Shown: one piece after another, positions 14,147-64,000 of the stretch
Layout: every line of letters starts with the position of its first letter
Numbering within the stretch: position 1 is the first letter of the stretch
Assembly: GCF_032062105.1 (NCBI RefSeq)
Contig: NW_026930103.1
Coordinates: forward strand, 620,001-684,000
From: Saccostrea cucullata
Lineage: Eukaryota
Length of the DNA stretch: 64,000 nucleotides
Direction: 5' to 3'
Made by a program: the position numbers and the translations under genes
The notes under the pieces: model-generated
The model's database searches: none
What the model was told of the DNA's origin: nothing
What the model saw: only the letters and a program-made list of their open reading frames with translations

Positions 14147-14371
14147 TTATTTCACTTGCATATTTTGTGCATTTTTATACATGAAAAGCAAGTACAGCAA
14201 AAAAATTTATATATATGTTCCGGTAGATATTATTGCGCCGTGTGATTAGGTCACGTATTGACCTCTGACCTCAGACAAACTTCATACAGAATTGAAGATA
14301 TTTGTTCTCCGTATGTTTATATAATAGAGAGATACCACAAATGTATATATTATACAATGAAAGACTTGAAG

Positions 14372-14941
14372 TTTTTATGCGCCCGGATCAATAGATCCGG
14401 GACGTATATTGTTTTGTCCTGTCTGTCTGTCTGTTTGTCTGCAAACTTTAACCTTCGCTTTTGAACCATAAAAGAGAGAGACTTTAATTTGGTATGCACA
14501 CTCCACTAATAAAATTCTTTCAAATGACACCAAGGTCAATGACTTTGTGATTTTGACTGTGACCTATATGCTAAAAATAGTTTTTTTATGCAAACTTTAA
14601 CCTTCGCCGTAACTTTTGAACCCTGAAAGTCAGAGACTTCATAATTGGTATGCATACTCTACTAATCAAGCTCTTTCAAATGACACCAAGATCAATGACC
14701 TTTTGATCTTGACTGTGACCTATATGCTAAAAATACCTTTTTTGAACCTTCATCATAACTTCTGAACAATGAGAGATAGAGACTTCGTATTTGGTATGCA
14801 TACTCCACTAATCAAGTTCTTTCAAATGATTCCAAGGTCAATGACCTTGTGATCTTGACTGTGACCTATATGCTAAAAATAGCTTTTCTTCGAACTTTAT
14901 TGCCGCCGGGCGCATAGTGTTTCACAAACACATCTTGTTTT
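14372..14941 (-). mobile_element. Second HINE-like element, opposite orientation
   Basis: ttttatgcgcccggatc...gatccggg hairpin, (CTGT)n microsatellite, three internal repeats (caaatgacaccaaggtcaatgacc...gtgacctatatgctaaaaata), ends ccgggcgcatagtgtttcacaaacacatcttgttt. Confidence 0.7.
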
Positions 14942-22557: not shown

Positions 22558-22848
22558 TATGTAGGTTGTTGCATTACTAATTCCCCTATAAACAATTAAT
22601 GCAATGTAAGCGTTATGTATAGGTTGTTGGATTACTAATTCTCCTATAAACAATTTGGTATCAATGTAAGCGTCATGTAGATTGTCGCATTGCTAATTCC
22701 CCTACAAACAATTTACTGCAATGTAAGCGTTATGTAAGTTCTTGCATTACTAATTCTCCTATAAACAATTTAGTGCCAATGTAAGCGTTATGTAGATTGT
22801 TGCATTACTAATTCTCTGATAAACAATTTAGTGCCAGTGCAAGCGTTA
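22558..22848. repeat. About 59-60-bp minisatellite, 5 copies
   Basis: Unit tatgtaggttgttgcattactaattctcctataaacaatttagtgcaatgtaagcgt. Confidence 0.85.
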
Positions 22849-40599: not shown

Positions 40600-41771
40600 G
40601 TACAAAGTCTGTTGAATTCGCGGGAAATGTTACACCAGCCAATAAAATTGCATTTTACATCAGAGAACATTTAGTTGGAGGGCAGAGTAAGTTGAGGTAA
40701 TATACATTTCCTATTGTTTTAAGAAAAAATATTTTCTGTATTCAACTTCACTAGTGTTTTGACAATACATTTACTTATTCAGAAATTGAAAAAAATAATG
40801 TCAAACACTTAATTTTAGTCGCTTTAAGCCTTAAATCCACTCCTCATCTGATTAACATGTTTGTACACCCCCTTATCCACCCAATCCTTAGAATTTGTAA
40901 TGAAGTTGCTTATATACATCACAGGCGTCGAAACCGGGGGGAGGGGGGGGGGGTAGTCCATTTTTGCACAGATATAGCCATGGCACAATGGGGCTCCTTC
41001 TACAAATGTTTTTTAGTGGGAGGGGTGTGTAATCCCCCCCCCCCCCTGTACCCTTGTTCAATTTGTTTCTGACACCTATGTGCAGTGTTCATTTACCCTC
41101 CCCTTTTTACTGTACAAAGTGTCTTCGAACACGTTGCCCCCCCCCCCCCCCATTTTATTGCAAAATAATCAAAAGATTTCGTGGTAATTGTAATCAGTTT
41201 AATTTAAATATTGTGTGGCTGGAATCTATATGATTTTTATCTTATAACCAAAATAATCTATATTTAATGATGTGGAAAAAAACCTAGACAAGATTCTTTG
41301 GAAACGATGTGCCATTGTTTAGGTAGTTACTAGTGCCTTAATATACATGTATCTACCTGTATAAAATTTTGATACACAATTTTTGTTAAATATTTTTTTC
41401 TGAATAAATCATTATTAGAGAAGGGGGCTGTCTATCAAAACAGTTGTGATCCTTTGTAGAAAATCGGGACCTAATAGCTTTTAATTGCTTTTATATACCA
41501 GTGATGAGGATTTATCTTTTAATTAGAACTTGTCTCAAATATTTTTTGTTCAAATAAAGAGTTACCTGAATTAAAATATGATATGGTTATGAAAATATTT
41601 CTCTCATAACCCCCCAATATTCAACATAGGGTATTAGGTCTATCAGCTCATGTATGACAATATGCATGCATGATTTTACGGAAATGACATTAAATAATTT
41701 ACTGCAACATGTAATGCTATTTTTTGTGAAGTTTCATATCATTTTCAGTATTACTGGTAAACAAGAAGGAA

Positions 41772-42839
41772 ATGGAGACTGTAAATCAACGTGGTAGACC
41801 ATATGTTAAAGGGAAAGCTCTTTCAAAAGACATGAGAAGTTTAATAATAAATGACTTAATTCAAGGTGGTGCTGTCAAAGGTAACCCTACCATTCCTCGT
41901 GGTCTAGGTGTTGAGTTGTCGCACAAATTTAAAGTGTCGAAATCGACAGTGTCAAATCTCTGGAAAAAATACAACGAGAAATTCTCGGTTTCTCCTCGCA
42001 AACCATTTCATGCAAGTACACGGAAAATAGGAGAAGAGGACTGTGAGTTTATTAAAGTATTGAAAACTGAACAACCTTCTATGCAATTAAAAACAATAAA
42101 AAATGAGTTACTTCGCCATTCAAACAGTATAACGCACGTCGGAATAGGAACGATTTCTAACACGATTCGAAAAGATCTCAACATGACATACAAAAAAATG
42201 TGTCTGTATCATAAAAATAGATTTAATATTCACAATCTCCAATATACACAAAGATTCCTTAACTATGTCGCGAATAAAGATCCATACACATTAAAGTTTA
42301 TGGATGAAATGGGAATCAGGTTGGTGGACGGTCAGCCAAACTACGGACATTCCATTAAAGGTACAAGATGCGTGGAAATGACCAGATATGACAGAACAGC
42401 CAACTATACCGTCAATTTGATCGTTGGTATTACAGGTGTTAAATATGTCTCTATTATTGATGGTCCATCAGATACTTTCAAGTATGTTGGCTTTATTGGA
42501 GAGGCAGCCAATAGTTTTACAGATGAGGGAGAGAGAGCATTCCAGTTGGGGGATACCCTGGTGATAGATAATGCCCCTATTCACCACCATACCGCCGAAA
42601 GAATCCTCAGAAATTGGCTACCGACTATAGGTGTAGATGTTCTGTTTTTACCTACCTATTCTCCAGATCTTAACCCAGCAGAAAAATGTTTTCTTAAAGT
42701 TAAGACTTTGATCAAGAGTGATAGATATGTAACTGCTCTACATAAAGATATGAAAGAGGCCGTACTACAAGCCTTCGGCGAAATTACTATGGCAGACACT
42801 TTGTCCTTCTTTCATGCAACAGATTGCATATTCGCCTAA
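41772..42839 (+). CDS. DD37E transposase (355 aa), inner copy
   Basis: Paired-domain-like N-terminus VNQRGRPYVKGKAL and HTH; catalytic FMDE, IDNAPIH, YSPDLNPAE with 37 residues between the second D and E. Confidence 0.93.
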   Translation: METVNQRGRPYVKGKALSKDMRSLIINDLIQGGAVKGNPTIPRGLGVELSHKFKVSKSTVSNLWKKYNEKFSVSPRKPFHASTRKIGEEDCEFIKVLKTEQPSMQLKTIKNELLRHSNSITHVGIGTISNTIRKDLNMTYKKMCLYHKNRFNIHNLQYTQRFLNYVANKDPYTLKFMDEMGIRLVDGQPNYGHSIKGTRCVEMTRYDRTANYTVNLIVGITGVKYVSIIDGPSDTFKYVGFIGEAANSFTDEGERAFQLGDTLVIDNAPIHHHTAERILRNWLPTIGVDVLFLPTYSPDLNPAEKCFLKVKTLIKSDRYVTALHKDMKEAVLQAFGEITMADTLSFFHATDCIFA

Positions 42840-45716
42840 CGAAGTTAATTTGAGCTTAAGTTGACATTGTAAAGAGTTGATCTAATCTTTGGATGTTGTG
42901 AAGGGAGCAAGCTGAATTTAATTCGACAGAAGCTGTCCTCGAGAAGTAAATACGTCTCCGTGCACCCCCCCCCCATAATCAGATCTAATTAAATGGCGCT
43001 AGTCCCTTAACCCCCGACCCCTAAGATTTTGTGTGCGGGAAGTTCTCGACCCAAATTTTTCTTCAAACTTATCCAGGTTTATACAATGTAGATTAACAGT
43101 GTCTAGTTTAAAAATTTGTAAATTTTTCATTGGTCATTTAAATAAAGTAGATGAAACATATCCGGCGGAGTAAAGAGTTCTTTGTTAATTACATGTACTT
43201 ATTACTTTTAGTGTTTTTCTCTGTGGATTGGAAAATGTTACACATGCACTAAATGTATATAAAGAAAAAAGAGAATAAATTTGTAGTATTTTATCATGCA
43301 ATTTGTGCATAGGACTTTTCTTTGGGATCCAAGAAAAATATCATTACTAACTTTTAATTTTTCATGTCACAATCATTCTCGAAATCCATGGATTTTGTTT
43401 CCATTCTATTTCCACAAAATTGAACAAAACGATGCTACTTGTATTTAAAAGAGGTCAACCAACACTGTGTATTTCCTCACAGTTTACATAATCTTTACGG
43501 TAGGAATATTGCGTTAAAATTTGTAATTGTCCGAGTTAACAAAAGCGATTATACCGTCGTAAAAGCAGCGATTTGCAATAAAAAGGGGGCTTCCTGTAAT
43601 TCGGGTCACAAAACACATACTGGAAAACCAAATTTAAAATTAAATGATTATGTTGAAAACTTATCAGAAACTGAAGTGATTGAATCTGATTGAAAATAGT
43701 TATTTCTAGTCAAATATCTCTTCAAACCCCGCTGGGTTTCTCGAAACATAGATTTATCATTTTGCTCTTTTGAAAAGTTGTTTAATACTATAACTGTTAT
43801 GATTGACTGTGTGAAATGATTGCGTACAAAAATCTGTCAAATTACATAACATCGACCGACATTATTCTGAACTGAAATTTACAACTGCTTTTCTCTCAGG
43901 AGAAATATACATCAAAAACTTGCGCAAACGTCATAGAGTGTAAAAAACAGGAAGCTCGTAGGTGGGGCTAGTAATCAGCTACATCGCTGTTGCAACCAAT
44001 GAGAATCAGCGTCATCATTTTACAGCCGGTAAACAAGTAGCGTCGAGAAAGTCACGCCCTACTGAAAGTCCAAAGAAGGGTTGAAATGCTCATAAATCTG
44101 TTGAAATTTGTGTCCAATAGATCAATAAAGTCATTTTCATCATCTTTATACATTATGCGCACGGCCGGCATACGTCCCAAATATTTAATTTGAGTTTGGA
44201 TAAGTCCTTCAAGACCTATAAATCCAAGAGATAAAAGTTCTCGGAGTGAAACACTCATCAGGGTACATCTTTCACTTCCATAATAATCATAATGTACCTT
44301 AAAATCAATTTCACAATAATCATCCGAAATTATCTTTGACACAGCCATGTCGCGCCCAATACTGTAATGTGATGCAATCTCCCGTGCAAACATGTACAAA
44401 GTCTGTTGAATTCGCGGGAAAAGTTACACCAGCCAATAAAATTGCATTTTACATCAGAGAACATTTAGTTGGAGGGCTGAGTAAGTTGAGGTAATATACA
44501 TTTCCTATTGTTTTAAGAAAAAATATTTTATGTATTCAACTTCACTAGTGTTTTGACGAATACATTTACTTATTCAGAATTTGAACAAATAATGTCAAAC
44601 AATTAATTTTAGTCGCTTTAAGCCTTAAATCTACTCCTCATCTGATTAACATTTTTCCTGTACACCCCCTTCTCCACCCAATCCTTAGAATTTGTAATGA
44701 AGTTGCTTATATACATCACAGGCGTCGAAACCGGGGGTGGGTGGGGTAGTCCATTTTTGCACAGATATAGCCATGGCACAATGGGGCTCATTCTACAAAT
44801 GTTTTTTTAGGGGGAGGGGTGTGTAATCCCCCCCCCTGTACCCTTGTTCAATTTGTTTCTGACACCTATGTGCAGTGTTCATTTACCCTCCCCTTTTTAC
44901 TGTACAAAGTGTCTTCGAACACGTTGCCCCCCCCCCCATTTTATTGAGTATAATCAAAAGATTTCGTGGAAATTGTAATCAGTTTAATATAAATATTGTG
45001 TGGCTGGAAGCTATATGATTTTCACCCTATAACCAAAACAATCTAAATGTTATGATGTGGAGAAAAACCTAGATAAAATAATTAAAAGTAGTTTTTACTG
45101 CATGGTTAAGATACTTTGGAAACGATGTGCCATTGTTTAGGTATAGTTACTAGTGCCTTAATATACATGTATCTACAGTACCTGTATAAGATTTTGATAC
45201 ACAATTTTTGTTAAATATTTTTTTCTAAATAAATCATTATTAGAGAAGGGGGCTGTCTATCAAAACAGTTGTGATCCTTTGTAGAAAATCGGGACCTAAT
45301 AGTAATTGCTTTTATATACCAGGGATGAGGATTTATCTTTTAATTAGAACTTGTCTCAAATATTTTTTGTTCAAATAAAGAGTTACCTGAATTAAAATAT
45401 GATATGGTTATGAAAATTACTCTCATAACCAGGGATGAGGATTTATTTTTTATTACTCATAATTAGAAACTTGTCTCAAATATTTTTTGTTCAAATAAAG
45501 AGTTACCTGAATTAAAATATGATATGGTTATGAAAATATTTCTCTCATAACCCCCCAATATTCAACATAGGGTATTAGGTCTATCAGCTCATGTATGACA
45601 ATATGCATGTATGATTTTACGGACATGACATTAAATAATTTACTGCTACATGTAATGCTATTTTTTGTGAAGTTTCAATCATATCATTTTCAGTATTACT
45701 GGTAAACAAGAAGGAA

Positions 45717-46784
45717 ATGGAGACTGTAAATCAACGTGGTAGACCATATGTTAAAGGGAAAGCCCTTTCAAAAGACATGAGAAGTTTAATAATCTATGAC
45801 TTAATTCAAGGTGGTGCTGTCAAAGGTAACCCCACCATTCCTCGTGGTTTAGGTGTTGAGTTGTCGCGCAAATTTAAAGTGTCGAAATCGACAGTGTCAA
45901 ATCTCTGGAAAAAATACAACGAGATATTCTCGGTTTCTCCTCGCAAACCATTTCATGCAAGTACACGGAAAATAGGAGAAGAGGACTGTGAGTTTATTAA
46001 AGTATTGAAAACTGAACAACCTTCTATGCAATTAAAAACAATAAAAAATGAGTTACTTCGCCATTCAAACAGTATAACGCACGTCGGAATAGGAACGATT
46101 TCTAACACGATTCGAAAAGATCTCAACATGACATACAAAAAAATGTGTCTGTATCATAAAAATAGATTTAATATTCACAATCTCCAATATACACAAAGAT
46201 TCCTTAACTATGTCGCGAATAAAGATCCATACACATTAAAGTTTATGGATGAAATGGGAATCAGGTTGGTGGACGGTCAGCCAAACTACGGACATTCCAT
46301 TAAAGGTACAAGATGCGTGGAAATGACCAGATATGACAGAACAGCCAACTATACCGTCAATTTGATCGTTGGCATTACAGGTGTTAAATATGTCGCTATT
46401 ATTGATGGTCCATCAGATACTTTCAAGTACGTTGGCTTTATTGGAGAGGCAGCCAATAGTTTTACAGATGAGGGAGAGAGAGCATTCCAGTTGGGGGATA
46501 CCCTGGTGATAGATAATGCCCCTATTCACCACCATACCGCCGAAAGAATCCTCAGAAATTGGCTACCGACTATAGGTGTAGATGTTCTGTTTTTACCCAC
46601 CTATTCTCCAGATCTCAACCCAGCAGAAAAATGTTTTCTTAAAGTTAAGACTTTGATCAAGAGTGATAGATATGTAACTGCTCTACATAAAGATATGAAA
46701 GAGGCCGTACTACAAGCCTTCGGCGAAATTACTATGGCAGACACTTTGTCCTTCTTTCATGCAACAGATTGCATATTCGCCTAA
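45717..46784 (+). CDS. DD37E transposase (355 aa), outer copy
   Basis: Intact; 4 amino-acid differences from 41772-42839. Confidence 0.93.
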   Translation: METVNQRGRPYVKGKALSKDMRSLIIYDLIQGGAVKGNPTIPRGLGVELSRKFKVSKSTVSNLWKKYNEIFSVSPRKPFHASTRKIGEEDCEFIKVLKTEQPSMQLKTIKNELLRHSNSITHVGIGTISNTIRKDLNMTYKKMCLYHKNRFNIHNLQYTQRFLNYVANKDPYTLKFMDEMGIRLVDGQPNYGHSIKGTRCVEMTRYDRTANYTVNLIVGITGVKYVAIIDGPSDTFKYVGFIGEAANSFTDEGERAFQLGDTLVIDNAPIHHHTAERILRNWLPTIGVDVLFLPTYSPDLNPAEKCFLKVKTLIKSDRYVTALHKDMKEAVLQAFGEITMADTLSFFHATDCIFA

Positions 46785-48605
46785 CGAAGTTAATTTGAGC
46801 TTAAGTTGACATTGTAAAGAGTTGAACTAATCTTTGGATTCTGTGAAGGGAGCAAGCTGAATTTAATTGGACAGAAGCTGTCCTCGAGAAGTAAATACGT
46901 CTCCATGCACCCCCCCCCCCCCCCCAATAATCAGATCTAATTAAATGGCGCTAGTCCCTTAACCCCCCCACCCCTAAGATTTTGTGTGCGGGAAGTTCTC
47001 GACCCAAATTTTTCTTCAAACTTATCTAGGTTTACACAATGTAGATTAACAGTGTCCAGTTTAAAAATTTGTAAATGTTTCATTGGTCATTCAAATAAAG
47101 TAGATGAAACATATCCGGCGGAGTAAAGAGTTCTTTGTTAATTACATGTACTTATTACTTTTAGTGTTTTTCTATGTGGATTTGAAAATGTTACACATGC
47201 ACTAAGTATATATAAAGAAAAAAAAATAAATTTGTAGTATTTTATCATGCAATTTGTGCACAGGACTTTTCTTTGGGATCCAAGAAAAATATCATTACTA
47301 AGTTTTAATTTTTCATGTCACAATCATTCTCGAAATCCATGGATTTTGTTTCCATTCTATTTCCACAAAATTGAACAAAACGATGCTACTTGTATTTAAA
47401 AGAGGTCAACCAACACTGTGTATTTCCTCACAGTTTACATAATCTTTACGGTAGGAATATTGCGTTAGAATTTGTAATTGTCCGAGTTAACAAAAGCGGC
47501 TACCGTCGTAAAAGCAGCGATTTGCAATAAAAAGGGGGATTCCTGTAATTCGGGTCACAAAAACATACTGGAAAACCATGGAAATTAAGTAAATTTAAAA
47601 TCAAATGATTATGTTGAAAACTTATCAGAAACTGAAGTGATTGAATCTGATTGAAAATAGTTATTTCTAGTCAAATATCTCTTCAAACCCCACTGGGTTT
47701 TTCTCGAAACATAGATTTATCATTTTGCTCTTTTGAAAAGTTGTTTAATACTATAACTGTTATGATTGACTGTGTGAAATGATTGCGTACAAAAATCTGT
47801 CAAATTACATAACATCGACCGACATTATTCTGAACTGAACTTTACAACTGCTTTTCTCTCAGGAGAAATATACATCAAGAACTTGCGCAAATGTCATAGA
47901 GTGTAAAAAACAGGAAGCTCGTAGGTGGGGCTAGTAATCAGCTACATCGCTGTTGCAACCAATGAGAATCAGCGTCATCATTTTACAGCCGGTAAACAAG
48001 TAGCGTCGAGAAAGTCACGCCCTACTGAAAGTCCAAAGAAGGGTTGAAATCCTCATAAGAGAAACTCATGTATAAATGATAGTTCACTCAGCATATTGAC
48101 GTACCTTATACGGTCCATTTCTTTCTCGTTTTAAAAATCTTATACCTGCACTTGATTCAGACAATATTGTTGCGCATAAAAATATTACCAATCTAGACGT
48201 ACATCATCACGAAGAAAATGGATACCTTGTATAATGAGATAATTGTAAAACAAATAAAAATAAATTAGATTAGTATGTAGACTAAATTAAACAAACAAAA
48301 CAAAAAAATCATAAAAGTGAACCAAAAAATTAAACTGCAGGGCAGGCGCCAGACACACCGGTTGTGGATCTGTTTTTGTATTGTATCAACAATTAGGCAA
48401 TCGTATTTTAGAAAGGTACGTACACACAGTAGATATCAGCGTTAAAAACTACTTATAATGTAAAAGATAACCTTGATCAAAACATCGTTTATTCTCAATT
48501 ACATCCAAAAAATATTTCAATACACCAAACAACCTTTAATATATATTTTTCTTTTTACTGCATATAGTACTTTTTGCTTGCTAATATGAACACGGTAAGC
48601 TTTTT

Positions 48606-50267: not shown

Positions 50268-52155
50268 TTAACTGAGTAGTGGACAACAAAAATTAAATAT
50301 ACACCAAATATACATGGTATATCTGCAAACAAACTGAGATTTTTGTGAGCTGAAAGATACATTGGGAATGATATTAAGCCAGAAATCCATTTCCTGTTTT
50401 CTATACTTAATTCTAGAAGTAACGCCAGCACCACTTAACTGCACATAAGCCTGAGTTGATGAATCAAATGGAGGCCATTCGGGGAGGTTGTCATAGTTAG
50501 GGTCCCTGAAAAATTCAAAATTCTTGCATTCATTAAAAAAAATAATTTCAATAGTTACTTTTGACAAAAAAAAAATTCTATAAAGAAAAAGAAGGAGGAA
50601 AAAATACTAAACTCACTTACCCAGTTTTAGCAAAGTTTGACCAATATTTCCTCATAATGGCTGACAACTTCAAATCAGAATCCTTCGTCTTATATTTAGA
50701 ATTGGGATCCACAAAAGTTAAATTTTCTACGAAAAACAGAAACATTAAATCGGTGGTATGGGCAGAGCCTTTATACCAAGATGGTGGAGGAGATCCCATG
50801 AAAACTGGTAGCCCCTCCGTAAGAATAAACTGGTATCTTTTCGAGTTTGTCGTGTTTCCGGAAGAATGAGTGAATAGAGTTGACAAACTGGGCGCAATGA
50901 AAAATAAATCTGAGTACCAGTGTAATACGGAAAGACTTTGAAGAGTTATGTTGTCATTTCCCCCATACTCCTTGCACATCGCATTCATTACGCTAAGTTT
51001 GCCATTAAAATGATCAGTTACTGCAGTTGGAATGAGATGGTTGCAAAAGAAATCTCTAGGAATGCCTTCAGTCATGTTTAATCCGTAAGCAGTGAGAACA
51101 TCGAAAGTTTCTAGGTACAGCGACCCTTCCATGTCGCAGTTGCCAACCATTACATCCAAAGATTTGAAAAACATATATTCCTCTGATAATGGGCTTTTAA
51201 ACATTTTGTTGGGCGACATTTTGAAAAGTTCGCCGTCCACTACCGGTGTAAAGACATTGGTTATGAGTCTGTGAATGGAACTAAGCGAGCCTTTAGCAAA
51301 ATCGGATACTGCATGCTTTATAGAATCAACTGGTAAGTTCCGCATGCATTTTAGAACAAGTTCTGGGTTTGTGTTCATGTTACATCCGACTTTGTCAGTG
51401 ATTATTTCTGAGGATTGCCTCGTACTTCCAATGGCTAAAGGAGAATTAGCCGTCCCGCTTTGCAGAATGATTCGATGAAACAAACCTTTATTTTTCGGTA
51501 TAAGGGACAAGAGTCCCACGCTGAAACCTCCGGCTGATTCTCCGAACAAAGTTATTTTTTCCGGGTTTCCACCATAATCCTCGATATTATCTTTCACCCA
51601 CTGGATGGCTAACATCTGATCCCAGAGTCCATAATTCCCTTTGATAAAAACTTTATCTAAACTGTAGAAACCGAATATTCCAAGTCTGTAGTTTAACGTC
51701 ACAACAATGACGTCACCACTTAAAGCAAGCATACTTCCGTCATAGTAACTTCCATAACCAAAAATGTAGCCGCCTCCATGGATCCATATCATGACTGCTC
51801 TTTTGTGCGCATGCTTCAAAGGATAAGGGATGTAAATATTTAAGTTCAGACAATCTTCGCTCACTTTCCCGCCGAAGTTTGGATCATCCAAGAGTTGCAT
51901 ACAAACAGGTCCCAGAATTGTTCCATTTCGGGTTTCATTCCAGGCCCCGTACGGTTTTGGTTTTGCAAATCGCAGTTCATCAACTGGGGGCATTGCGTAA
52001 GGTATGTTTAGAAATTTCATAATCCCTGCTTGTGTTCCATTTAATACATGTTCTCCCATGATGTCGCCAAGTTTTGTATGGTGTATGATATTTCTTATGT
52101 ATTGTCCTAGAGAAAACGATAGGGAGTTAAGGATTATTACTCCACAAATGTTCAT
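50268..52155 (-). CDS. Type-B carboxylesterase / cholinesterase-family hydrolase; 2 coding exons
   Basis: Exons 52155-50621 and 50505-50268. Signal-peptide-like N-terminus, SEDCLNLNI, oxyanion hole WIHGGGY, nucleophile GESAG, Glu in GNCDMEG, His in GSAHTTDL, WSNFAKTGDPN, hydrophobic C-terminal tail. Confidence 0.92.
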
Positions 52156-52725
52156 TTTTGTGACCTGAAAGATAAAAGAAGATAAAATTCACGTTAAAAT
52201 ATGAAAATATAATTTTTTTTTTCATTTTGTTATGCTCTTGTATGAGAAAAAGTTTTTACATTTGAAGATTAAATCAAATTTTAAGTTAAGTATTTTAACA
52301 ATGAATTTCAAATTGTAATATTTTATGTTCTTTTATTCATACTGGTACAAATTTATATAGGTCTTTCTTGTATTTTCAAATCATTATTATTTCATTTTAT
52401 TCCATGTTTTGTTATTGAATTCTAGAACGTAAACTATAATAAACTATAGCTCTAGTAACTCTTTTTAAATTTCTCAAGAGATAGATTACATAAATTTATC
52501 ATCTAAAAAAAAACACAAACTCTTTGATGACGGTTTTTGATTTGATCTATGGAAAGAAGCTAAGCAACAATCTGAATAAAATCAAATCTTTGTTACGCTC
52601 CGAAATTCTGATAGTGAGCAAAGATGTGGTTTTAATCAAATTGAGCCAAACATAAAAAATATTTACATGTACAGTACCTACATATAAACTGCATCTCACA
52701 TGTTGTTTCCGCTTTGGTAACATAA

Positions 52726-53374
52726 TGTAACGATTTTGACTGTATATATATTTAAAATGTGTGTTTATCTATTGGTGGTTTTAATTTATTCCGACCGGAA
52801 GATTCATTCATCATTATTGTATGTTTAAACTACATTTAAACTTGTTGTACATCATTGTTTTACCTTATTTAAAAGTCATGCTGTCATTTCATATGTATTG
52901 TATACTTTCGTTTTCCATTACTTCCGGTCGCGGGAAAATATGTACAGGTTTTACCTAGAATTTGTCGTGTTTTCGCGTTTTATAACGTCACGTTGGGTCA
53001 TGCTATGTCACTTTGTTTTAACGTTTAGTTTTAGAAGTCAGTTGGGATTTTTAGATGATAGTGGACGGACGTAAATTTTTTTAAGGAGTTATTTTGAATA
53101 GTCAGCCCAGAATTGTGAATTTATTTTACTCAATTTGTAGTCGTTACCAGACTATTTGTGAGATGTCCAGGTAATTTAATTGAAATTTGTGATAATTTAT
53201 TTATTATTTATAAAATTTCGTATTAGAAATTTACTTTATCTGAAATTTAAGGAATCCGTGGAATTTAGCAAGTGACGTTGTGTGACCATATTTTGAAATA
53301 TAAATTGTTGTTAATTTATTGACTATCATTATTAAATTTTGGAATATCAGAATATAATTTTTGAAAACGTTACA
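52726..53374 (+). repeat. 5' LTR (649 bp)
   Basis: TGTAACG...CGTTACA inverted termini; first ~320 bp repeated from 59430. Confidence 0.92.
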
Positions 53375-53377
53375 TTT

Positions 53378-53395
53378 TGGTGGCAGCGGTGGGAT
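53378..53395 (+). other. Primer-binding site (tRNA-Leu-like)
   Basis: TGGTGGCAGCGGTGGGAT just after the LTR, complementary to a tRNA-Leu 3' end ...AUCCCACCGCUGCCACCA. Confidence 0.8.
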
Positions 53396-53468
53396 AGGAT
53401 AAAATTATTTGTGCAAGAATATTTGTTATTCTTGATTTTCAATTGCTAGATTTTCCCCGGTGAAAAAA

Positions 53469-56400
53469 ATGTCAGAATCCCGTGGTAGTAATGTGAACCC
53501 CAATGACAAGGGTGGGGGTGAATCAAATCCTGATATTGAAACTAAAGTGAATTCTATGCAGTCCCAGATTTGTGATATTTCTACGGTGTTACAGAAACTT
53601 ACAAGGACTTTAGATCGTTTGGTTGACAAAGACCATGACATGACTGACTGTAGAAGTGAGTACAGTGATTACAGAACAATTGACAGAGTGAGTGAGCCTG
53701 ATGGTCATAGACATACTCTGCCCAGTGACGCAAACCAGTCACAATTTTGTTCGTTTGATTCGCGAACACAGGTACACCCTCATAATATTTTAGATAGACC
53801 ATCGGATTTTAATCCGTTCAGACCAAATTATGAAAATCAAAACCAGACTCGACAGACTGTCAGAGCAAAACCCGACACTTATGACGGCAGATCTAGTTGG
53901 ACAGACTTTATCACTCAGTTCGAAATTGTATGTCGGTTAAATAACTGGTCCAGTGAGATTAAAGCCCTACAATTAGCAGCTTGTTTGAGAGGCTCAGCCA
54001 GAAGTGTTCTGACTGACCTTAGACCCCATCAGCTTGACGATTATTATGAGTTAAAATTTGTTCTCCAAACTCGCTTCGAACCAAAGAATCAAACTGAAAT
54101 GTACCGCGCAGAAATGAATAGTTGGTATCGGAAAAGAGACGAAAGCCTCCCTGAATTAGCACAAGATATAAAACTATTGGCCAGACTTGCTTATCCCACA
54201 GCCCCGTGTGAAGTTAGGGATACTTTGGCATATAAATGTTTCCGTGATGCCTTACATGACCAAGATATGGGCGATTTGTCAGAGCGCGTCCGAAAATATT
54301 GACGAAGCGTTAAACCTTGCGTTGAAATTTGAAGCCTTCAAAATGAGCAGAAATCGGAAGTACACAAATACTCCATATTTGCATCGAGCAGGAGATTAGT
54401 GACCACAGCTATCAAGACCTGTATGTATGAAAATTCCCAGACCAATGTCTCGCGATCAGACCTCTCAAATCACAGAAATGAGACAAAGAAATGTTTCTAT
54501 TGTGGGAAACTGGGTGATTTTAAAAATAAGTGTAGAAAACGCCAGTTTGATCTACAAGCGGGAAAATATTTCCTCCCAAAGAATGAACGACAGACCAAAC
54601 TTTGCGGAGAGGTCCGAAACCTCTGAGATTATTCATGCACGTGATTGCGCTCACGGTCCTTTAAACGACCAGAGGCTGAGCCTGTAGGTCAAGTCTCAGC
54701 CTGTGATACTAAAACCCAAACTTGTTGTGAACCGAATGACAGTGATAGACCTAAAGAGCAAATATTTGAAATCAAAGAGGCCCGCAGTGATAGTTTATTT
54801 GTTGTTGCAAAATTGAATGATAGAAAAATAAATTGTTTGACTGATACTGGAGCCTCAGTTTCTGTATTACATAAACGAATTTTTTATGAAATTTCGGGGG
54901 ATGTAAAACCGAGTTTGAATAGAAATTGTGGGAAATTGAAAGTGGCTGATGGTGAAATGATTACCCCGGCGGGAGCCGCCCAGATGACTTTTGTTATTGA
55001 TGGTAAACCCAATAGCTATAGGATGTTAGTAGCCGATATTGAGGTACCCGCGGTACTAGGATATGATTTCCTGAGGGACAATAATTGTGAAATGAAACTT
55101 GGTGAGGGTACGCTCAAGTTAAATGGTGAATCGATTAGTCGTAGACTTCACAGCCAAATTCAGACCCTATTCAAACTGTCGTTGACTGAAAATGTGGTGA
55201 TACCTCCGTTGAGCGAAAGGATAATTCCAACAAGAATTTTGGGTGATCAGCCATTTGGGAAAACGGCTGTTGTTACGGATATAAGTCCATCTGTGTCAAA
55301 GAAAGGAATTCTAGTCGGGAAAAGTGTTTTTGACCCTAATAAATCTGAAATACCTGTGCGTGTTGTCAATGTTTCTGATACTCCACAAACCATTTACAAA
55401 AATACGGTTACGTCAGAATGTGAGATAGTTCTTGAGAGTGATGTAGTATCATTTCAAAATCGATCTTGTGATAAAATGAATGCGCATACCTTGAATAACC
55501 TTGACCTTTTAAAGGTACCAGAAGACAATATGTCTGTTCCTGACCATATCAAAGTTGTTCTTGACTCATGTAAAAACAATTTAAGCGATGTAGAATTGAC
55601 GAAAGTGTGCAATCTTCTGCGTAACTATTTAAGTGTGTTTGCAACCTCTAAATCGTCTTTAGAGGTTGCAAACAGATTGTGTTTTACACAAAATAAATAC
55701 ATAAAACAAGCTCCTAGACGTATACCCATGAACCAAAAAGAGAAAGTTTCGACGGAATTGAAACGAATGTTGGATGTTGGTGTTATTAACCCTCTAAATC
55801 TCCTTGGGCTTCCCCTATAGTCATTGTGCGCAAATCAGACGGCTCCATATTCTGTGTCGATTACCGTAAAGTCAATGAAGTCACATTAAAAGACTCTTAT
55901 CCTCTGCCCAGAATCAATGACTCCCTAGACGTATTACGCGGATCTTCGTGGTTTTCTGTACTTGATTTACAGTCAGGTTTCTGGCAGGTAAAAATGGATC
56001 CGTCAGACCAATAGAAAACAGCTTTCGTAACAAATACTGGACTATACGAGTTTACCAAGATGCCCTTCGGTCTTTGTAATAGTTCCGCGACTTTTGAGCA
56101 ACTCATGGAGAGTGTCTTAGCTGGATTACAATGGGAGACTTGTCTTGTTTACATCGATGATATCATCATCTTTTCTGAATTCTTTGAGACCCATTTAGAT
56201 CGTCTTCGTGATGTTTCAAAGAAAGGTCAAATTTCTAGGACATATAGTGTCTGAACATGGTATCGAACCATGTCCCAGTAAAATTGAAGCAGTCAAGGAT
56301 TGGCCCATACCCTTTAATGTGAAAGACCTAAGAAGCATTCTGGGAACCATTTCATATTATCGCCGTTTTATCAAAGGATTTGCTGACATTGCGAAGGCTT

Positions 56401-58443
56401 TGCATAAACTGACCGAGAAAACAGTTCAGTTCAGATGTACCAAAGAATGTGATATTGCTTTTCAGCGTCTTAAATCTGCTTTAATGACAAAACCTATAAT
56501 GTCCTACCCAGATATGTTCAAGTCATTTATATTAGATACCGATGCTAGTGGCACAGCTATCGGTGCTGTTTCGTCCCAGGTTCATGAAGATGGAGAACAT
56601 GTTGTTGCATATTTTACAGGTGCTTGTCCAAGCATGAGCGACAGTATTGTATTACCAAGAAAGAGCTCTTAGATGTTGTCGAAGCAATTAAGCACTTTCA
56701 TTACTATTTATTTGGAACAAAATTTCTTGTTAGGACAGATCATGGTGCTCTTAGCTGGTTACGACGTTTTAAAAATCCTGAGGGTCAGCTAGCTAGGTGG
56801 ATCCAAGTTCTTGATACATACAACTTTGACTTTCGGCATCGTCCTGGAAAACAACACTCTAATGCTGATGGTTTGTCTCGTCGACCATGCATTTCTTGTA
56901 AATTTTGCGAGAGACAAGAAGACAAAATCACTCATTCCAGCGAAGCTGTTGTCCATATGTCAACCCAAACGTCCTGTCTGGACTACGAATCAGTTGAGGA
57001 TCAGCATCCAGTCAATGCGGTTTCTACAGTGGAACCCAGTTCAGTTTCAGGGGACGATAACCTTTCTTGGTTCCAGTCAAAGTCAAATGATGAACTCTCA
57101 CAAGCCCAGAGACAAGATCCTGTTCTGAAACATCTCTTCTCCCTGAAAGAAAAATACAAAGATGAACCTCCTAAGTGGCATGAAGTTTCTCACCTATCCC
57201 CAGCCCTCAAATCATATTGGTCACAGTGGAAAAGAATTGAACTTGTTAATGGTGTTCTATACAGAAGATGGGTGGATGTTGATAAAAATTCTGAAAGACT
57301 GCAACTGTTGGTACCAAAATGTTCGCAGAGTGAAATCTTAACTTTGTTACATGACTCTTTGCTTTCAGGTCACTTAGGCATAACCAAGACCATACACAAA
57401 ATTAGGGAAAGATTCTATGGGTCAGATTATATGTCCCACACCAGAAGATGGATTGAGAAGTGTACTGTGTGTCAAAAGCGTAAAACCCCTTCCAAACCAA
57501 TTAGAGGAGCTAGGGTCCAATACAATGTTGGTGCACCCTTAGAGAGAATAGCTCTTGATATAATGGGCCCGTTGCCACAGACCCAGAAAGGACACAAATA
57601 TATATTGGTTATTACAGATTATTTCACGAAATGGGCAGAAGCCTACCCTATGATAGATCAGGAAGCAAGTACCATTGCCGATTTCTTGATTGATTTCATT
57701 TGTCATTATGGTTTGCCTTTACAAATTCATTCCGACCAAGGGAGACAATTCCAGTCTAATCTTTTTAAGGAACACTGTAAAACCCTTGGGATTGATCAAA
57801 CAAGAACCTCTCCTTACCACCCTCAAAGTGATGGACTCGTAGAGAGAATTAACAGGACAATTATTGATATGCTTAGTAAAACCATTATCAAAAGTCAAAG
57901 AGATTGGAACAGAAAATTACCATTTGTGATGCTAGCATACAGGTCCTCTATTCAAGAGAGCACTAAGGAATCTCCCTGTTTTTTGATGTTCGGTCGTGAA
58001 CCCCTTTTACCGGTTGACTTATTGTATGGAAAATGCCAAGACCGCAAAATAGTGTCCGATTATGTACAAGACCTTGTAACAAAATTGTGGAATGTGCATG
58101 AATCTGCTCGTGAGAATATTTTGAAAGCTAGTGACAGACAAAAGAAATATTATGACCTAAAGACCAGTGACTAAACTTTTTCCCTAGGGGATGGTGTTTT
58201 TGTTATTTAAACCCAGTGAAAATTAAGGGGAAATCACCAAAACTTATGTGTAAATGGGAGGATCCCTACACTATAGTCAGAAAAGTGTCAGATTTGATCT
58301 ACGATATTAAGACTTCTTCAACTTCCAAGTCAAAAGTTGTACATGAGAACAGATTGAAACCATATTTTGGGAGAATGAGAATGTGGTTTGTACCACCCAG
58401 TGATAGAAACACCCGTGCCCAGGGGACCCAAAATGACCAATAA
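53469..58443 (+). pseudogene. gag-pol pseudogene (multiple frameshifts and stops)
   Basis: Gag (KPDTYDG, degenerate knuckle CFYCGKLGDFKNKC), protease LTDTGAS, RT MPFGL/YIDD, RNase H DTDAS/RTDH, integrase HHCC plus LDIMGP/HSDQG/GLVER and a C-terminal SH3-like tail. Confidence 0.92.
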
Positions 58444-58534
58444 TAAAATAGTCACTCAGACCAAAGATTGAAATATTTACATGTAAATTTGTGTTGGTGA
58501 ACTTTTGTATTTATTTATTTTTATTTATTATTAG

Positions 58535-59222
58535 TGTTAACAGATATCTTGGATACCTTGCTGCTCCCTCTGAGGAACCCCTGCATCAATGCGATGACTG
58601 TTGACGGAGGTTCTTTTCAAAACACAAACTGTCTCGTCACAGGAGGAATACCCATGGTGACAGAGTCTTCTGTTCCTTCTGCTACTATTGTGTACCAAAA
58701 ACCAGGAAGTACCTACTAACAAAACATGAAGAAACTGTGCACCGGAGTAAGCCTGTCATTGAAAACAAAAGACCAGCAGCCAAGACACACCTACCAGAAA
58801 CAGCTGTAAGACCGCCCTCTCCTGTGTACTCTGACGTTTCTTCTGCAGAGTCTCTGCATCAGGAGGACCCATTGGATCTGTTGGACTTCTTCTTGGATTT
58901 TTCTGGGATATCTTTTCCTGAATTGATGTCGTTTCAGGACCCCAAGGATCCCAAGACCTTTGTTCCTGAGTCTTTGGACACTCCTGCTTGCACTCCTGTG
59001 GAGCACGCATTCCCCGTTCCTGCAGTCACCTCCCTAGAAGAGCCTCTGGACCTCAGCTTACCATCTGCTGCCTGGAACAGTACCTGCTCTGACGGACCTG
59101 TAGGACTTTCCCCACCTGCCGATTTTTCCTTTTCTCCATCACATCCTTTCATCTACTTCCAGAATCAGTATTTACTTGCCAAGATCACAGTTAACGCAGC
59201 AACGCAGATGGGCTTTTCTTAA
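58535..59222 (+). pseudogene. Accessory ORF3 of the Gypsy element: two C2H2 zinc fingers plus acidic Pro/Ser-rich tail with PLDLS
   Basis: The frame of ORF 58737-59222 extends upstream as CDDC*RRFFSKHKLSRHRRNTH and CSFCYYCVPKTRKYLLTKHEETVH with a single TGA at 58602-58604; T-rich tract and AG acceptors at 58534/58543. Confidence 0.75.
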
Positions 59223-59429
59223 AGAGAATCTACATGACTTTGTATTTCACACTGAATGTATGTGTTATTGAACTGTTGTTGAACAGTTGGTACATCGGTT
59301 TCATGTTTACATAAATTGTTAATATTTGTAAATGTTATGAAGATTGTATTTATTGGTAAATTTATTAAATGTGTAAAATCATTTTTATCCCCAAGATTCG
59401 AGGACGAATCTTTTGTAGTGAGGGGGTGA

Positions 59430-59746
59430 TGTAACGATTTTGACTGTTTATATATTCAAAATGTGTGTTTATCTATTTGTGTTTTAATTTATTCCGACCG
59501 GAAGATTCATTCATCATTATGGAATGTTTAAACTACATTTAAACTTGTTGTACATCATTGTTTTACCTTATTTAAAAGTCATGCTGTCATTTCATATGTA
59601 TACTTTCGTTTTCCATTACTTCCGGTCGCGGGAAAATATGTACAGGTTTTACCTAGAATTTGTCATGTTTTCGCGTTTTATAACGTCACGTTGGGTCATG
59701 CTACGTGACTTTGTTTTAACATTTAGTTTTAGAAGTCAGTTGGGAT
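59430..59746 (+). repeat. 3' LTR, 5' portion only
   Basis: Preceded by polypurine tract agtgagggggtga; colinear with the 5' LTR until ...agtcagttgggat, then abruptly unrelated. Confidence 0.9.
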
Positions 59747-60181
59747 CACAGGCACCTGACGTTACTTATTTTTCTTTTAATAAAAAAAAAATATACACAT
59801 ACCGAATAATAAACAAGGTATCCATCGAAATCCGCCATCTTGGATTTTCGAAGTAGGTCATCACTTGTATTTTCGTCTGAAACTCCGTCAAATAAACCAT
59901 ATTCTTTCTTTGGCCAGTCTTTCGAGGTCTAAACTTACGGACACTGCAGCCAGAAAGGCGCATCACACTTGCAAATATTGAAAATCCCTCGTCAAACTCG
60001 ACCTACTGCTTCAACATTCCGAGAAATCGCCAAAGGGGGGCCGGAAGTTTACATCAATATGCTAATGGGAATTCCGTATTTGTCAGTTTTGTGGGAACAT
60101 CACTCGGCCTTTTCCGTCAAGTCGAGAAAAAACCTCGGATGTAATTACTTGGACTCGGTCACGTGTCACGTGACAATTAAA

Positions 60182-63100
60182 ATGGCGGCGCCCATATGCA
60201 CGTTTTGTGGCCGAATTCAAAGAAATCTTCAGAGGGTAACCGGCACAAAACGTGCATACGAAAAAGATATTGAGAAAATTTTAACTGACGCTTTATGTCT
60301 CCAAATCAGTTTCACATTTGCGTGTAAGATATGTGTCCCATGCCTTACGTTATGTGAAAAATTCTGTGAGTTTAAAAGAAAGGTCAAAGGCAATACAGAG
60401 TTGTTAAACAGTTTGGCAATTTCACCGGCTCTTATGTCTCCTTCAACACCTAAGGGACCTACTCCAAAACGTCGTCGGATGAACACGCCCTTAAAGGTAA
60501 ATTATTTTTATTATGTCATGTGCTAGATTAAAGGCAAATATGCACTGATATGATACTTTATAGTACTAATGGAAAAACAGAACATACTAGTATGGGTATG
60601 GTCAGAGTATATCAAACAAATCATTTTTTATTGTTGGCTATTAACCATGTTAACTTCATTATTTTATGACAGAGTATAGCTGAGGTCAAGCCTACTGAAA
60701 AAAAAATTTCATCAAGGAGAAGTATTGACTTTGCTCATGATCATGGCTATAGCCTTCAAACTGAGGGTACGAATTGAAATTTCCATTATTTGAATATATT
60801 TTCTTATTTGAATTTTTATTTTAATTTTTTCAACTGAATGAATTCTTTAGTAGAATCTGTTGGAGAGACATTAGCTAAGAAAATCCACAGCAATTCAACT
60901 CCAAGAAAATCTGTTGCTGAGAAAATACACAGCAATTTAACTCCAAGGAAATCTGTTGCTGAGTGGCTAAAGGAAACTTGTAATCCTGGCTATAGCCTTC
61001 AAAATGAGGGTATGAAATGAAATTTCCATTATAATGCCCCTCTTTGAAGAAGGGAGGGCATATTGCTTTGCTGCTGTCTGTCGGTAGGTCTGTCTGAGGG
61101 TTGACCAAGTTTCCGTTCATTTTCTTTGCAGGGGTTGCACATACTGCAATGAAATTTTGAAATTTGGTATACAGATTTATCAGATGAATATCTAGGTCAA
61201 GCTGGGTACGATTGTGCCATTTTTGACAGAGTTATGCCCTTTTGGACTTAGAAAAATTCCAATTAGGGGGAGGGGACATAAGTGTTTTACAAACATCTCT
61301 TGTTTGAAATGTATTTTGTTAAAAGGTTTCTGATTACAACTCTCTCAAAGTATCATGATACAATATATTTATATTTTTTCAACTGAATGCATTCTTTATT
61401 AGAATCTGTTGGAGAGACACTAGCTAAGAAAATCCACAGCAATTCAACTCCAAGGAAATCTGTTGCTGAGAAAATACACGGCAATTTAACTCCAAGGAAA
61501 TCTGTTGCTGAGTGGCTAAAGGAAACATTATCCAAAGGTACGCTTTTTTCAAAGTAAAAAATAAAAATGAAAAAAATTGCAAACATGACAGTATGAGATA
61601 TCTTAGAAGGAAAAAAAAGAGAACTATGTTATTTATTAAAGTATATGTAAATATTTGCAGTTGATGAATCAAATGAAGAGCAAAAGGTAAAGAAAGAAAT
61701 AATTATACACCATTTGGCTGCCCTTCAGAAATTAGCCTTCAATGGCGCTAGTGTACTGTTCAAGAAATCTCCATCAGTGCTATGTGATTCAACATTATCT
61801 GAAATTGTTGATGAAATGAAGAACCATCTCCCATTTCTGTACAGTCTTCTGAATGTTATGATTGGAGTAAGCGGGTCAAAGACTGGTACCATAGCCTTGA
61901 TTTATGCCATGATATTACATAGCAGGAATAAGCAGGCTTCAAGAATGCAGAGGATCATGTCAACTTTTCTAATGAGTTGTAATGCCAGCAACATGGTAAT
62001 CAACCAATACTTGTATATTTAAGAATCCTTTATATTTACCTTTGATTTACCTTTAAGGGCATGATAAAGAATTAATTTCATGTACATGTATTTAGAATGA
62101 TCTGCCCTTAGATCTAAACTAAAATAAATTTAAATAATCTACTGTGTGGACTACCTAGTTTATGATCAATTCAAGCATTTAACATTTTACTAAGCCAAGA
62201 CAACTTAACTGAACATTTTTTTTTGCATTTTTTTCTAAGTACATGTATTCTGATCTTTATTTAGTTAATGACAAGACTAAACAAGTTTCATCTCACCCTG
62301 AGTGGAGACAGTAAGGTAAACCTTATCAAGGACTATGCTAATTATAATGAACACTTAGTGATTAAGGCAGTTGCAGCTGGAGAAGATGGAAAATTAAATG
62401 GTGACAACCTTGATATTTTTGTTACAACCAATGATATCAGAATGACAAACCACAACAAAGATTACCACTTCTTTGCCACTGATTGGACACCATACAGGGT
62501 CAAGCAACAAGATTTCAATGAACATGCTGGAGTGCAAGAGGCCATTGACCGTACCATTGATTTGGAACCCACAACTGAAAATTTTTTGGTGTCAGACAAT
62601 GAAAATAAGAAATTTGTTCATTATCTAGCACAGCTTCTTGGTAGAGAAATGTCTAAAACCTGTACAAACTTTAAGTGGCTGGAATCTGTAGTTCCCAAAC
62701 ACATTGAGCATTCTTTGTCAGATATTATGTCACGAAAAACTGTTTCTTACCGATTACCTATTCTCCTTAAGAATGAAGCAAAGTACGATGACTGTATTCA
62801 GATAATGGAATCATATGTTACAATGGTAACAGACTGGTACAACAAAGCCGGCAGAGGTTTGGCCATCAGTTGAAGACTGTTGAAATGTTGCCAGTTTCTT
62901 GGAGTTTTGTTTCATGTTAGTTTGAATTGAATATATTTTATTTCATTTTGTTTTTGCTCTAGTTTAATTTCAGTATTCAGACATCATTCTAGACTTTTCT
63001 GCAAGAATCTTCGCAGACTTTTTCCCTTCATATCTAACATTGTTAAAATACACCAAAAGCATAAGCATAAAAATATCTTTTTTAGCAATTCTGAACAAGA

Positions 63101-63629
63101 TTCAACCTTTGTAAATTAAAGTGAGCAAATACAATGTTGATTTTTTTGCTTGTGTTTTTGTTATTGAAATTATGTATTTTGAAATGGAATGAGTAATGAA
63201 ATTAATATTTATTAGAACTATTAATGGACTATATTAATTCATTTCATTCACATAAGGGGGGGGGGGGGTGTAGATTTAACTATTTACTAAAGATAAAGAA
63301 ACTTTGGATACATGAAAGCAGAAATGTGTTTAACATGTCTCTGGTGAAATCATTAATAAGATTTAGTTTACAAGTACATGCAAAAAAAAATATTCAAGGT
63401 CATCATTAGAATTAATAAGAATTTATTCATGTAATATGACCTTCGTATGTATTTAACAGGTGCTGAATTGACCAATTTGAAAGTGCCAGTAGGTGGAGAC
63501 CAACTTACCCGTGTTCGTTTGCAAGGTGCTAAGTCTCTTCGTGCTGGTTGTCATACTGCTCGTGAAAGACTGGACATTCTATTCCCAGTGGTTGTGGAAC
63601 TGTTCCATACAGTTATGGATTTTTTGGAG
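60182..63629 (+). CDS. Multi-exon DUF6589-like putative transposase with N-terminal C2C2 Zn domain (3' incomplete)
   Basis: Approximate exons 60182-60496, 60673-60766, 60854-61009, 61403-61537, 61661-61995, 62265-62856, 63460-63629. Motifs CTFC...CVPC, RLNKFHLTLS, GDNLD, PKHIEH, NEAKYDD, GGDQLTRVR, ELFH. Confidence 0.7.
61031..61304 (-). mobile_element. Short HINE-like element in an intron of the DUF6589 gene
   Basis: atgcccctctttgaagaagggagggcat hairpin, ctgt/ggtc microsatellite, ends ggggacataagtgttttacaaacatctcttgttt like 14372-14941. Confidence 0.65.
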
Positions 63630-64000
63630 GTAAAAAATAAATGCAAAGATAAGGACAGGCCTATGGTTGATACACCCATGCCCTAGGTGGTTCATTTTTA
63701 AGCTGATATACATTTGGCTATTCTTTTAACTACAGTTTCGTAAAAGTGCACATGCATATACATGTATGTTTAGTAATAATTGAGGCTTTTTATACATGAT
63801 CCTTAAACTTAATTAATAATTTGTCCAAAATTAGGTCCACAGTAATCGCTTTATTTTTGTCAGACAATATCTTCCATAATATTTTTTACCTAAAAGTTTC
63901 TTGGGGATTGAGGGACACATCTATACATATACATGTACTAGTAAAATTTATCTTATTTGCTTTATGAAATTTTAAAAAGCCTTGGTAAAATACTTTGTTT

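Follow-up and report, generated by a model that had tools for sequence, protein, structure and literature searches.

The question raised by the present locus is what kind of gene occupies the position of env in the Gypsy element in which it lies. The window analysed here, a stretch of 64,000 nucleotides of Saccostrea cucullata DNA to whose positions all coordinates below refer, contains between the integrase and the polypurine tract (PPT) of the element an exon at 58535–59222 on the plus strand (GC 48%). It had been predicted from the sequence that the product of this exon is not an envelope protein but a regulator of transcription borne by the element, with C2H2 zinc fingers and CtBP-binding motifs.

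The element at 52726–59746 is a decayed Ty3/Gypsy LTR retrotransposon, all the features of which lie on the plus strand. Its 5' LTR (52726–53374, 649 bp) has the inverted terminal arms TGTAAC...GTTACA and is directly followed by a primer-binding site (53378–53395), which we take to be of the tRNA-Leu type. Then come gag (53436–54626), which is broken by frame changes and gives a Pfam Retrotrans_gag match at E 0.0046, below the cut-off, and pol (54645–58443), where protease, reverse transcriptase (RT), RNase H and integrase are arranged in that order, with the Pfam matches Asp_protease_2, RT_RNaseH, Integrase_H2C2, rve and Integrase_p58_C. The last of these, at 58171–58440, corresponds to the integrase C-terminal domain and lies upstream of the finger exon, from which pol is separated by an AT-rich spacer (58444–58534, GC 21%) ending with a T-rich tract before the AG that is predicted as the acceptor. 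Downstream of the exon are the PPT (59420–59429) and the 3' LTR (59430–59746), so that the predicted position between integrase and PPT is borne out. The 3' LTR consists of its first 317 bp only, as it is interrupted by unrelated sequence and its remainder is outside the window; aligned with the first 323 bp of the 5' LTR, it gives 308 matches, 9 mismatches and 6 gap columns, i.e., a divergence of 9/317 aligned positions. It is thus the LTRs with primer-binding site and PPT (the 3' LTR being partial) together with the order of the pol domains that assign the element to Ty3/Gypsy, and the Pfam matches of gag and integrase are of the Gypsy type.

The copy at 52726–59746 is dead. Pol contains stops at 56012 and 58172 besides several frame changes, and in gag-pol as a whole at least seven breaks are found in about 5 kb (stops in frame account for two of them and frame changes for at least five, as read from the frames); the finger exon contains one stop in 0.69 kb, which is the same density. 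The decay of the whole element and the cut of the 3' LTR after about 317 bp had not been noticed in the original prediction, nor had the lack of an ATG before the fingers discussed below. It is noted that the sequence interrupting the 3' LTR (59747–64000) starts with CAC, and that its frames give a weak zf-AD match (59933–60523, E 0.003) and a DUF6589 match at 63435–63683 (E 1e-9); probably, a DNA transposon that extends beyond the window is nested here. Note also that the U3 region of the LTR contains an inverted pair of one 10-mer at 52792–52801 and 52921–52930, with a CCGGAAG core that is presumably ETS-like, and that the words ACGTCAC at 52984 and 53272 are, as we assume, CRE-like; the 10-mer pair and these words are candidate sites for host factors or for the finger protein.

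The exon, which ends with the stop codon at 59220–59222, encodes two fingers followed by a long tail. Finger 1 (58590–58655) has the canonical pattern C-x2-C-x3-F-x5-L-x2-H-x4-H (C-x2-C-x12-H-x4-H), and finger 2 (58671–58742) is a variant with the pattern C-x2-C-x14-H-x4-H, a spacing that is common to the family described below. Both of them, as well as a TGA at 58602–58604 that interrupts finger 1 directly after the second Cys, are found exactly where they had been predicted, on the plus strand. The Cys2-His2 ligands and the Phe/Leu core are present, and AlphaFold2, given an alignment of 22 sequences, models a beta-beta-alpha fold for both fingers with pLDDT of 87–97 and a disordered tail. 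Among solved structures, the closest in fold are C2H2 arrays that bind DNA, with Z of 4.6 or less. Searched by itself, the window protein has weak C2H2 matches in Pfam, the best of them (E 0.003) falling short of the curated cut-off, which its relative P0010 reaches; in the ESM Atlas it retrieves clusters of the generic C2H2 kind and, at 0.93, an unnamed one, with low recognition.

Because the stop density in the finger exon equals that of gag-pol, the TGA is best read as a decay lesion, one of many that arose after the insertion. Its 3' context resembles what we take to be the leaky type; programmed read-through was set aside, since the next codon is at an Arg/Lys position of the family and the lesion density matches that of gag-pol. 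That intact relatives should have a sense codon at 58602 was expected in the original prediction, and the finger-1 pattern is indeed open at this site in 30 of the 32 finger-bearing relatives, a count that is biased as the protein databases hold open frames only.

The tail is acidic and rich in Pro and Ser, as had been described: beyond residue 70 it contains 14% Pro, 12% Ser and 13% Asp+Glu, and the net charge of residues 95–195 is −16. An acidic-hydrophobic patch at 58827–58940, defined with an ad hoc score and a candidate for either an activation domain or a first CtBP site, includes the word PLDLL (58869–58883), at the site of which P0002 and P0003 have PLDLS. The canonical CtBP-binding motif PLDLS itself is at 59043–59057, and a short C-terminal motif common to the close subfamily, with a TQT-like word at its end, is at 59133–59219. 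In 200,000 shuffles of the window protein, PLDLS arises by chance in 0.14% and two PLDL in 0.0055%.

As no ATG is present upstream of the fingers in the frame of the exon, splicing is needed for the expression of the finger frame. A coding mini-exon is predicted in the 5' LTR at 53163–53170 (plus strand), consisting of an ATG and 5 nt and followed by a GT donor at 53171. This donor has the top score of the 367 GT sites from 52727 to 58500, calculated with generic donor weights. The candidate acceptors are the AG at 58533–58534 and a second in-frame AG at 58542–58543, and the ATG 8 nt before the donor is in frame with both of them. With the first acceptor, the predicted N-terminus agrees with that of the Saccostrea echinata protein P0002 at 8 of 9 residues, and a Met-Ser-Ser start as in P0002 is provided by only one of 366 GT sites, which is the donor at 53171. 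The splice from LTR to exon (53170/58535) is thus the expression route predicted from the sequence.

Two features are shared with env, namely the position between pol and the 3' LTR and, as predicted, the spliced expression; in the insect errantiviruses of the ZAM and Beagle subclades, env follows the same spliced design according to PMC12992720. By contrast with errantivirus env, the window protein is a C2H2 finger product with neither a signal peptide nor a transmembrane anchor: its highest Kyte-Doolittle 19-residue mean is only 1.09, from which a transmembrane segment is taken to be absent, and no envelope family is among its Pfam matches. The claim that the gene is not env is therefore upheld. 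Neither does the protein resemble a fusogen of the sORF2/FAST-like kind, which is a short protein with a central transmembrane helix.

In a phmmer search the sole match of the window protein was P0002, with 60% identity over 82%. With a profile, 154 matches were obtained among 1.84 billion representatives, of which the best 150 were taken; among the matches listed, at least 36 were kept as family and 11 were dropped after reading as ordinary finger proteins, and the family tally leaves out 103 listed matches, mostly multi-finger proteins. The family then comprises at least 39 proteins or fragments (36 profile matches, the window protein, P0002 and P0153), the hallmark of which is the finger-pair spacing H-x4-H-G-x4-C-x2-C-x14-H or the tail in common. 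Named members are from S. echinata, Mizuhopecten yessoensis and Pecten maximus, and three members are entered in RefSeq/GenBank as ordinary host proteins. A molluscan host is suggested by these bivalve relatives together with the AT-rich, intron-containing DNA of the window. The database name of P0002, 'zinc finger protein PLAGL2-like', has generic finger similarity as its support and nothing beyond, and was probably assigned automatically to a gene of a retrotransposon.

Linkage with pol is seen in two further gene models: that of P0014 has an integrase stretch upstream of the fingers, and that of P0099 has protease and RT stretches there, its RT being 57% identical to the window RT. The branches of P0014 and P0099 differ from that of the window protein, with weak support. 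The genomic context has been seen for one of the 39 members and inferred for two, and the other 36 could include host genes. Several member pairs are 80–99% identical at the start and then abruptly diverge or end, as decayed repeats do. Between lineages the identity of the finger pair falls to 28–52% with the metal ligands kept, and of the 24 branches of the tree built from the finger pair (28 rows, 54 columns), 5 are well supported. Longer fused forms (397–2000 aa) were not found among 7909 candidates, which is weak evidence. In a scan of prokaryotic genomes, the sole locus (L001) from 48 pattern matches was rejected; it is 33% identical and is read in another frame across a bacterial gene, among genes for ribosomal proteins. 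Taken together, the anatomy, the predicted LTR start exon and the pol-linked P0014 and P0099 support an accessory gene borne by the element in the position of env, and we regard it as very probable that this is a functional, spliced gene.

We now consider the CtBP motif. P[LI]DL[ST] is present in 13 of the 39 members overall. Because the query itself carried the motif, a fairer test set is that of the 28 distant members, of which 6 contain it, with 10 motifs in all, where 3000 shuffles gave 0.06 on average and never more than 2. In these six members the profile match covers the finger region only, and the motifs are at unalignable positions, with up to three per protein. The motif is absent from 5 of the 10 complete long members, including both named scallop proteins, and thus CtBP recruitment is not the core function of the whole family. 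The second-site PLDLS of the window protein is at a similar place in P0006, P0008, P0019 and P0024. It has been changed or lost in P0007, the nearest relative of the window tail (71% identical there), and the first motif site has been changed in P0008 and P0009, so that neither site of the window protein is invariant among close relatives; P0007, P0008 and P0009 may be decayed copies. On the finger-pair tree PLDLS is unclustered, with 7 changes, a number as low being given by 176 of 500 shuffles.

The original prediction that fingers and PLDLS are both conserved thus holds for the fingers; for PLDLS it holds insofar as the motif recurs above chance in distant members and fails for half of the complete long members. 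Judged from the sequences, P[LI]DL[ST] is genuine and under selection in about half of the members, without being the core of the family. As in partners of CtBP, the motif lies in a region modelled as disordered, its conservation being restricted to about half of the complete members. In E1A and EBNA3C, PLDLS binds CtBP (PMC11209466), and it is likely that the motif-bearing members of the present family also bind CtBP.

Besides the CtBP motif, two other modules are conserved in the family that had not been described for the locus, an acidic-hydrophobic patch and an unnamed C-terminal domain. An acidic-hydrophobic 24-mer, starting 21–50 residues after finger 2, is present in 10 of the 20 members examined, including some without PLDLS, and the patch is at least as widespread in the family as PLDLS; of 300 shuffles of the window protein, 2 attain the ad hoc score of its patch. 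In several long members (P0025, P0049, P0056 and P0099) it is not above shuffles. The patch is a candidate for an activation domain, which it resembles. The C-terminal domain, of about 75 residues (DPR-x-FF-x-GAPS...LPDG), is present in 10 of 153 gathered proteins, 7 of them by construction, namely in P0011, P0018, P0025, P0049, P0056, P0066, P0095, P0099, P0136 and P0153. No Pfam match to it was found in the three carriers scanned. Modelled within the whole protein, it consists of a helix and then three strands, with pLDDT of about 56–80; fold searches of PDB and BFVD with the P0066 model gave no match with E <0.001 (best VIA Z 4.7), the weakest hints being three-stranded sheets of the Pur-alpha/PC4 type with Z of about 4, and the ESM Atlas gave no usable feature match. 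The window protein does not contain this domain (0.4 bits), and its own C-terminal motif is related to it with an hhalign probability of only 0.1.

Near the end of the window protein (59196–59210) is a degenerate form of TQT, which we take to be the motif of the dimerisation hub LC8 (dynein light chain), and it is TQT proper in P0007 and P0024. Six of the 39 members (P0007, P0011, P0018, P0024, P0095 and P0153) have TQT within their last 40 residues, in comparison with a shuffle mean of 0.44 and a maximum of 4 in 2000, in a test chosen after seeing the data; anywhere in the protein it is present in 4 of 37, which with a shuffle mean of 2.5 is not above chance. As for the recognition residues, 20 of 25 members have at position 6 of the finger-1 helix an Arg, the typical guanine contact, while widely varying residues are found at positions −1, 2 and 3. 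As a rule of thumb, two C2H2 fingers read only about six bases.

Based on these results, the best explanation, which we hold tentatively and at a chance just short of even, is that of a regulator borne by the element that damps or times its own LTR via CtBP. As the third, accessory gene of a molluscan Ty3/Gypsy lineage, it would be expressed from a spliced subgenomic RNA in which the tiny ATG exon in the 5' LTR is predicted to be joined to the exon behind the integrase. The product would be a nuclear two-finger C2H2 protein of predicted fold, with the finger pair binding some short site within the LTR of the element itself and the PLDLS motifs recruiting the host corepressor CtBP, as suggested by the presence and the conservation of the motif; the element would thereby damp or time its own transcription. 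It counts against such self-repression that there are only two fingers with variable recognition positions −1, 2 and 3, that P0007 has lost the second motif and that two close relatives have changed the first one, as well as that half of the complete long members lack the motif, that the activation-like patch is no less widespread than PLDLS, that genomic context supports so few of the members and that the window protein is without the C-terminal domain of the long ones. A wider reading, possible but somewhat doubtful, would be that of a widespread molluscan 'complex' Gypsy lineage having its own splice-made, sequence-specific transcription factor in place of env, with modular effectors, namely CtBP sites gained or lost by lineage, the acidic activation patch and the unnamed C-terminal domain.

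The main rival of self-repression is that the protein is a trans-activator or an anti-silencing factor, where the fingers are bound to the LTR, the acidic patch activates and PLDLS draws CtBP off repressive complexes; we consider it rather unlikely. It would account for the occurrence of the patch also in members without PLDLS and for its score above nearly all shuffles in the window protein, and it has a precedent in foamy-virus Tas, an activator that binds DNA and whose gene lies close to the 3' LTR. Further precedents are E1A, which disrupts CtBP complexes via PLDLS, and EBNA3C, which can relieve CtBP repression (both in PMC11209466), and, for anti-silencing by a family-specific accessory protein, VANC of VANDAL elements (PMC6719617). 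By contrast, the patch does not exceed shuffles in the four long members named above. Moreover, DNA-binding fingers together with PLDLS are the usual design of CtBP-dependent repressors, and a titration of the E1A type needs no DNA-binding domain.

If instead the protein controlled host genes (e.g., germline, stress or small-RNA genes), leading to a permissive cell, this would agree with the viral PLDLS proteins, which mostly target host promoters (PMC11209466), and with the LTR, in which no outstanding lineage-specific repeated site was found, the best being the 10-mer pair at 52792/52921. Such control is improbable, however, as the variation of the recognition residues between lineages fits better with a target that diverges with the element, and as broad manipulation of the host would be costly for a germline-bound element, an argument made in PMC6719617. 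Quite improbable is a non-transcriptional role, in which the finger pair binds RNA or protein of the element (e.g., in integration-complex tethering or genomic-RNA handling) and the motifs serve as adaptors: with it would be consistent the low number of fingers (two), the non-canonical spacing of finger 2, the alpha/beta C-terminal domain of long members, without a Pfam match, and the C-terminal TQT of 6 of the 39 members, while the recurrence of PLDLS points to nuclear transcriptional control and the prevalent Arg at helix position 6 to contact with guanine. That the exon is a passenger from the host, or that a host finger family lies near Gypsy remnants by chance, without any function for the element, we regard as very improbable. 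The entry of three members as ordinary host proteins would suit it, but against it stand the predicted dedicated in-frame start exon in the LTR, the metal ligands kept between lineages at such low finger-pair identity and the pol linkage in two further lineages; moreover, no host donor of the fingers was found, the best solved-structure match being at E 0.003.

It is instructive to compare the gene, with self-repression as the favoured reading, with known systems. Host repressors of the ZNF217, Ikaros family, Snail and KLF3 types have C2H2 fingers and PxDLS in a disordered region and recruit CtBP. The fingers of the present family give weak sequence and fold matches to those of such repressors, from which they differ by being two only, with a family-specific spacing and in a mobile-element carrier. 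Foamy-virus Tas and HTLV Tax/HBZ are LTR regulators from spliced genes in the 3' region; these complex retroviruses differ in belonging to the Retroviridae, with env and regulators of other folds, whereas the window element has no env. To our knowledge, none of the viral CtBP binders E1A, EBNA3C and Meq has C2H2 fingers. Adenovirus E1A, EBV EBNA3C and MDV Meq likewise are foreign proteins that engage CtBP via PLDLS (PMC11209466), but they come from DNA viruses, while the carrier here is an LTR retrotransposon.

Non-env accessory genes of Gypsy elements are also known from the Drosophila MDG1 group, where sORF1 is predicted as helix-turn-helix and sORF2, in some cases downstream of pol, is a membrane fusogen; these are short and unspliced in the elements tested (PMC11952523), whereas the window gene has a predicted splice, two C2H2 fingers and CtBP motifs. 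Arabidopsis VANDAL VANC is likewise an accessory protein encoded by the element and thought to act on its own family via a short DNA motif (PMC6719617), but it belongs to a DNA transposon of a plant and acts on DNA methylation. The window gene may act in a manner like that of VANC or of the regulators of complex retroviruses.

In the open-access full-text literature, which was the scope of our search, we found no earlier description of such a gene. A term search of the mollusc transposon surveys PMC6238403 and PMC10294476 did not find the word 'zinc', and the accessible parts of PMC12440569 and PMC13269885 contain no description of such a gene. Few regulators of silencing encoded by transposons are known, a scarcity stressed in the review PMC6719617. 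In Drosophila, CtBP recruited by PLDLS-type motifs is reported to silence the canonical promoters of transposons at piRNA loci (PMC12992792). If the wider reading given above is true, an animal LTR retrotransposon would have a feedback circuit on its own promoter, using a corepressor that is also used by the piRNA pathway. DNA-binding fingers together with a corepressor motif on animal LTR retrotransposons would give a handle on self-restraint versus countering of host silencing, and the slot of env with its splicing route is predicted to be able to hold a nuclear regulator. Among the bivalve gene models named 'zinc finger protein', some are probably genes of elements, one example being the oyster protein labelled 'PLAGL2-like'.

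Finally, we note the surroundings of the element in the window. Directly upstream of it, and on the opposite strand, is a host carboxylesterase gene at 50268–52188 (minus strand; Pfam COesterase, E 1.9e-112), with an exon of 523 codons. Tandem arrays are present at 2690–2893, 13724–14887 and 22562–22834, with units of about 54, 146–156 and 58 bp, respectively, and in the region 37400–48000 segments are duplicated in tandem, about 1.45 kb and 3.8–3.96 kb apart and with 95–99% identity.
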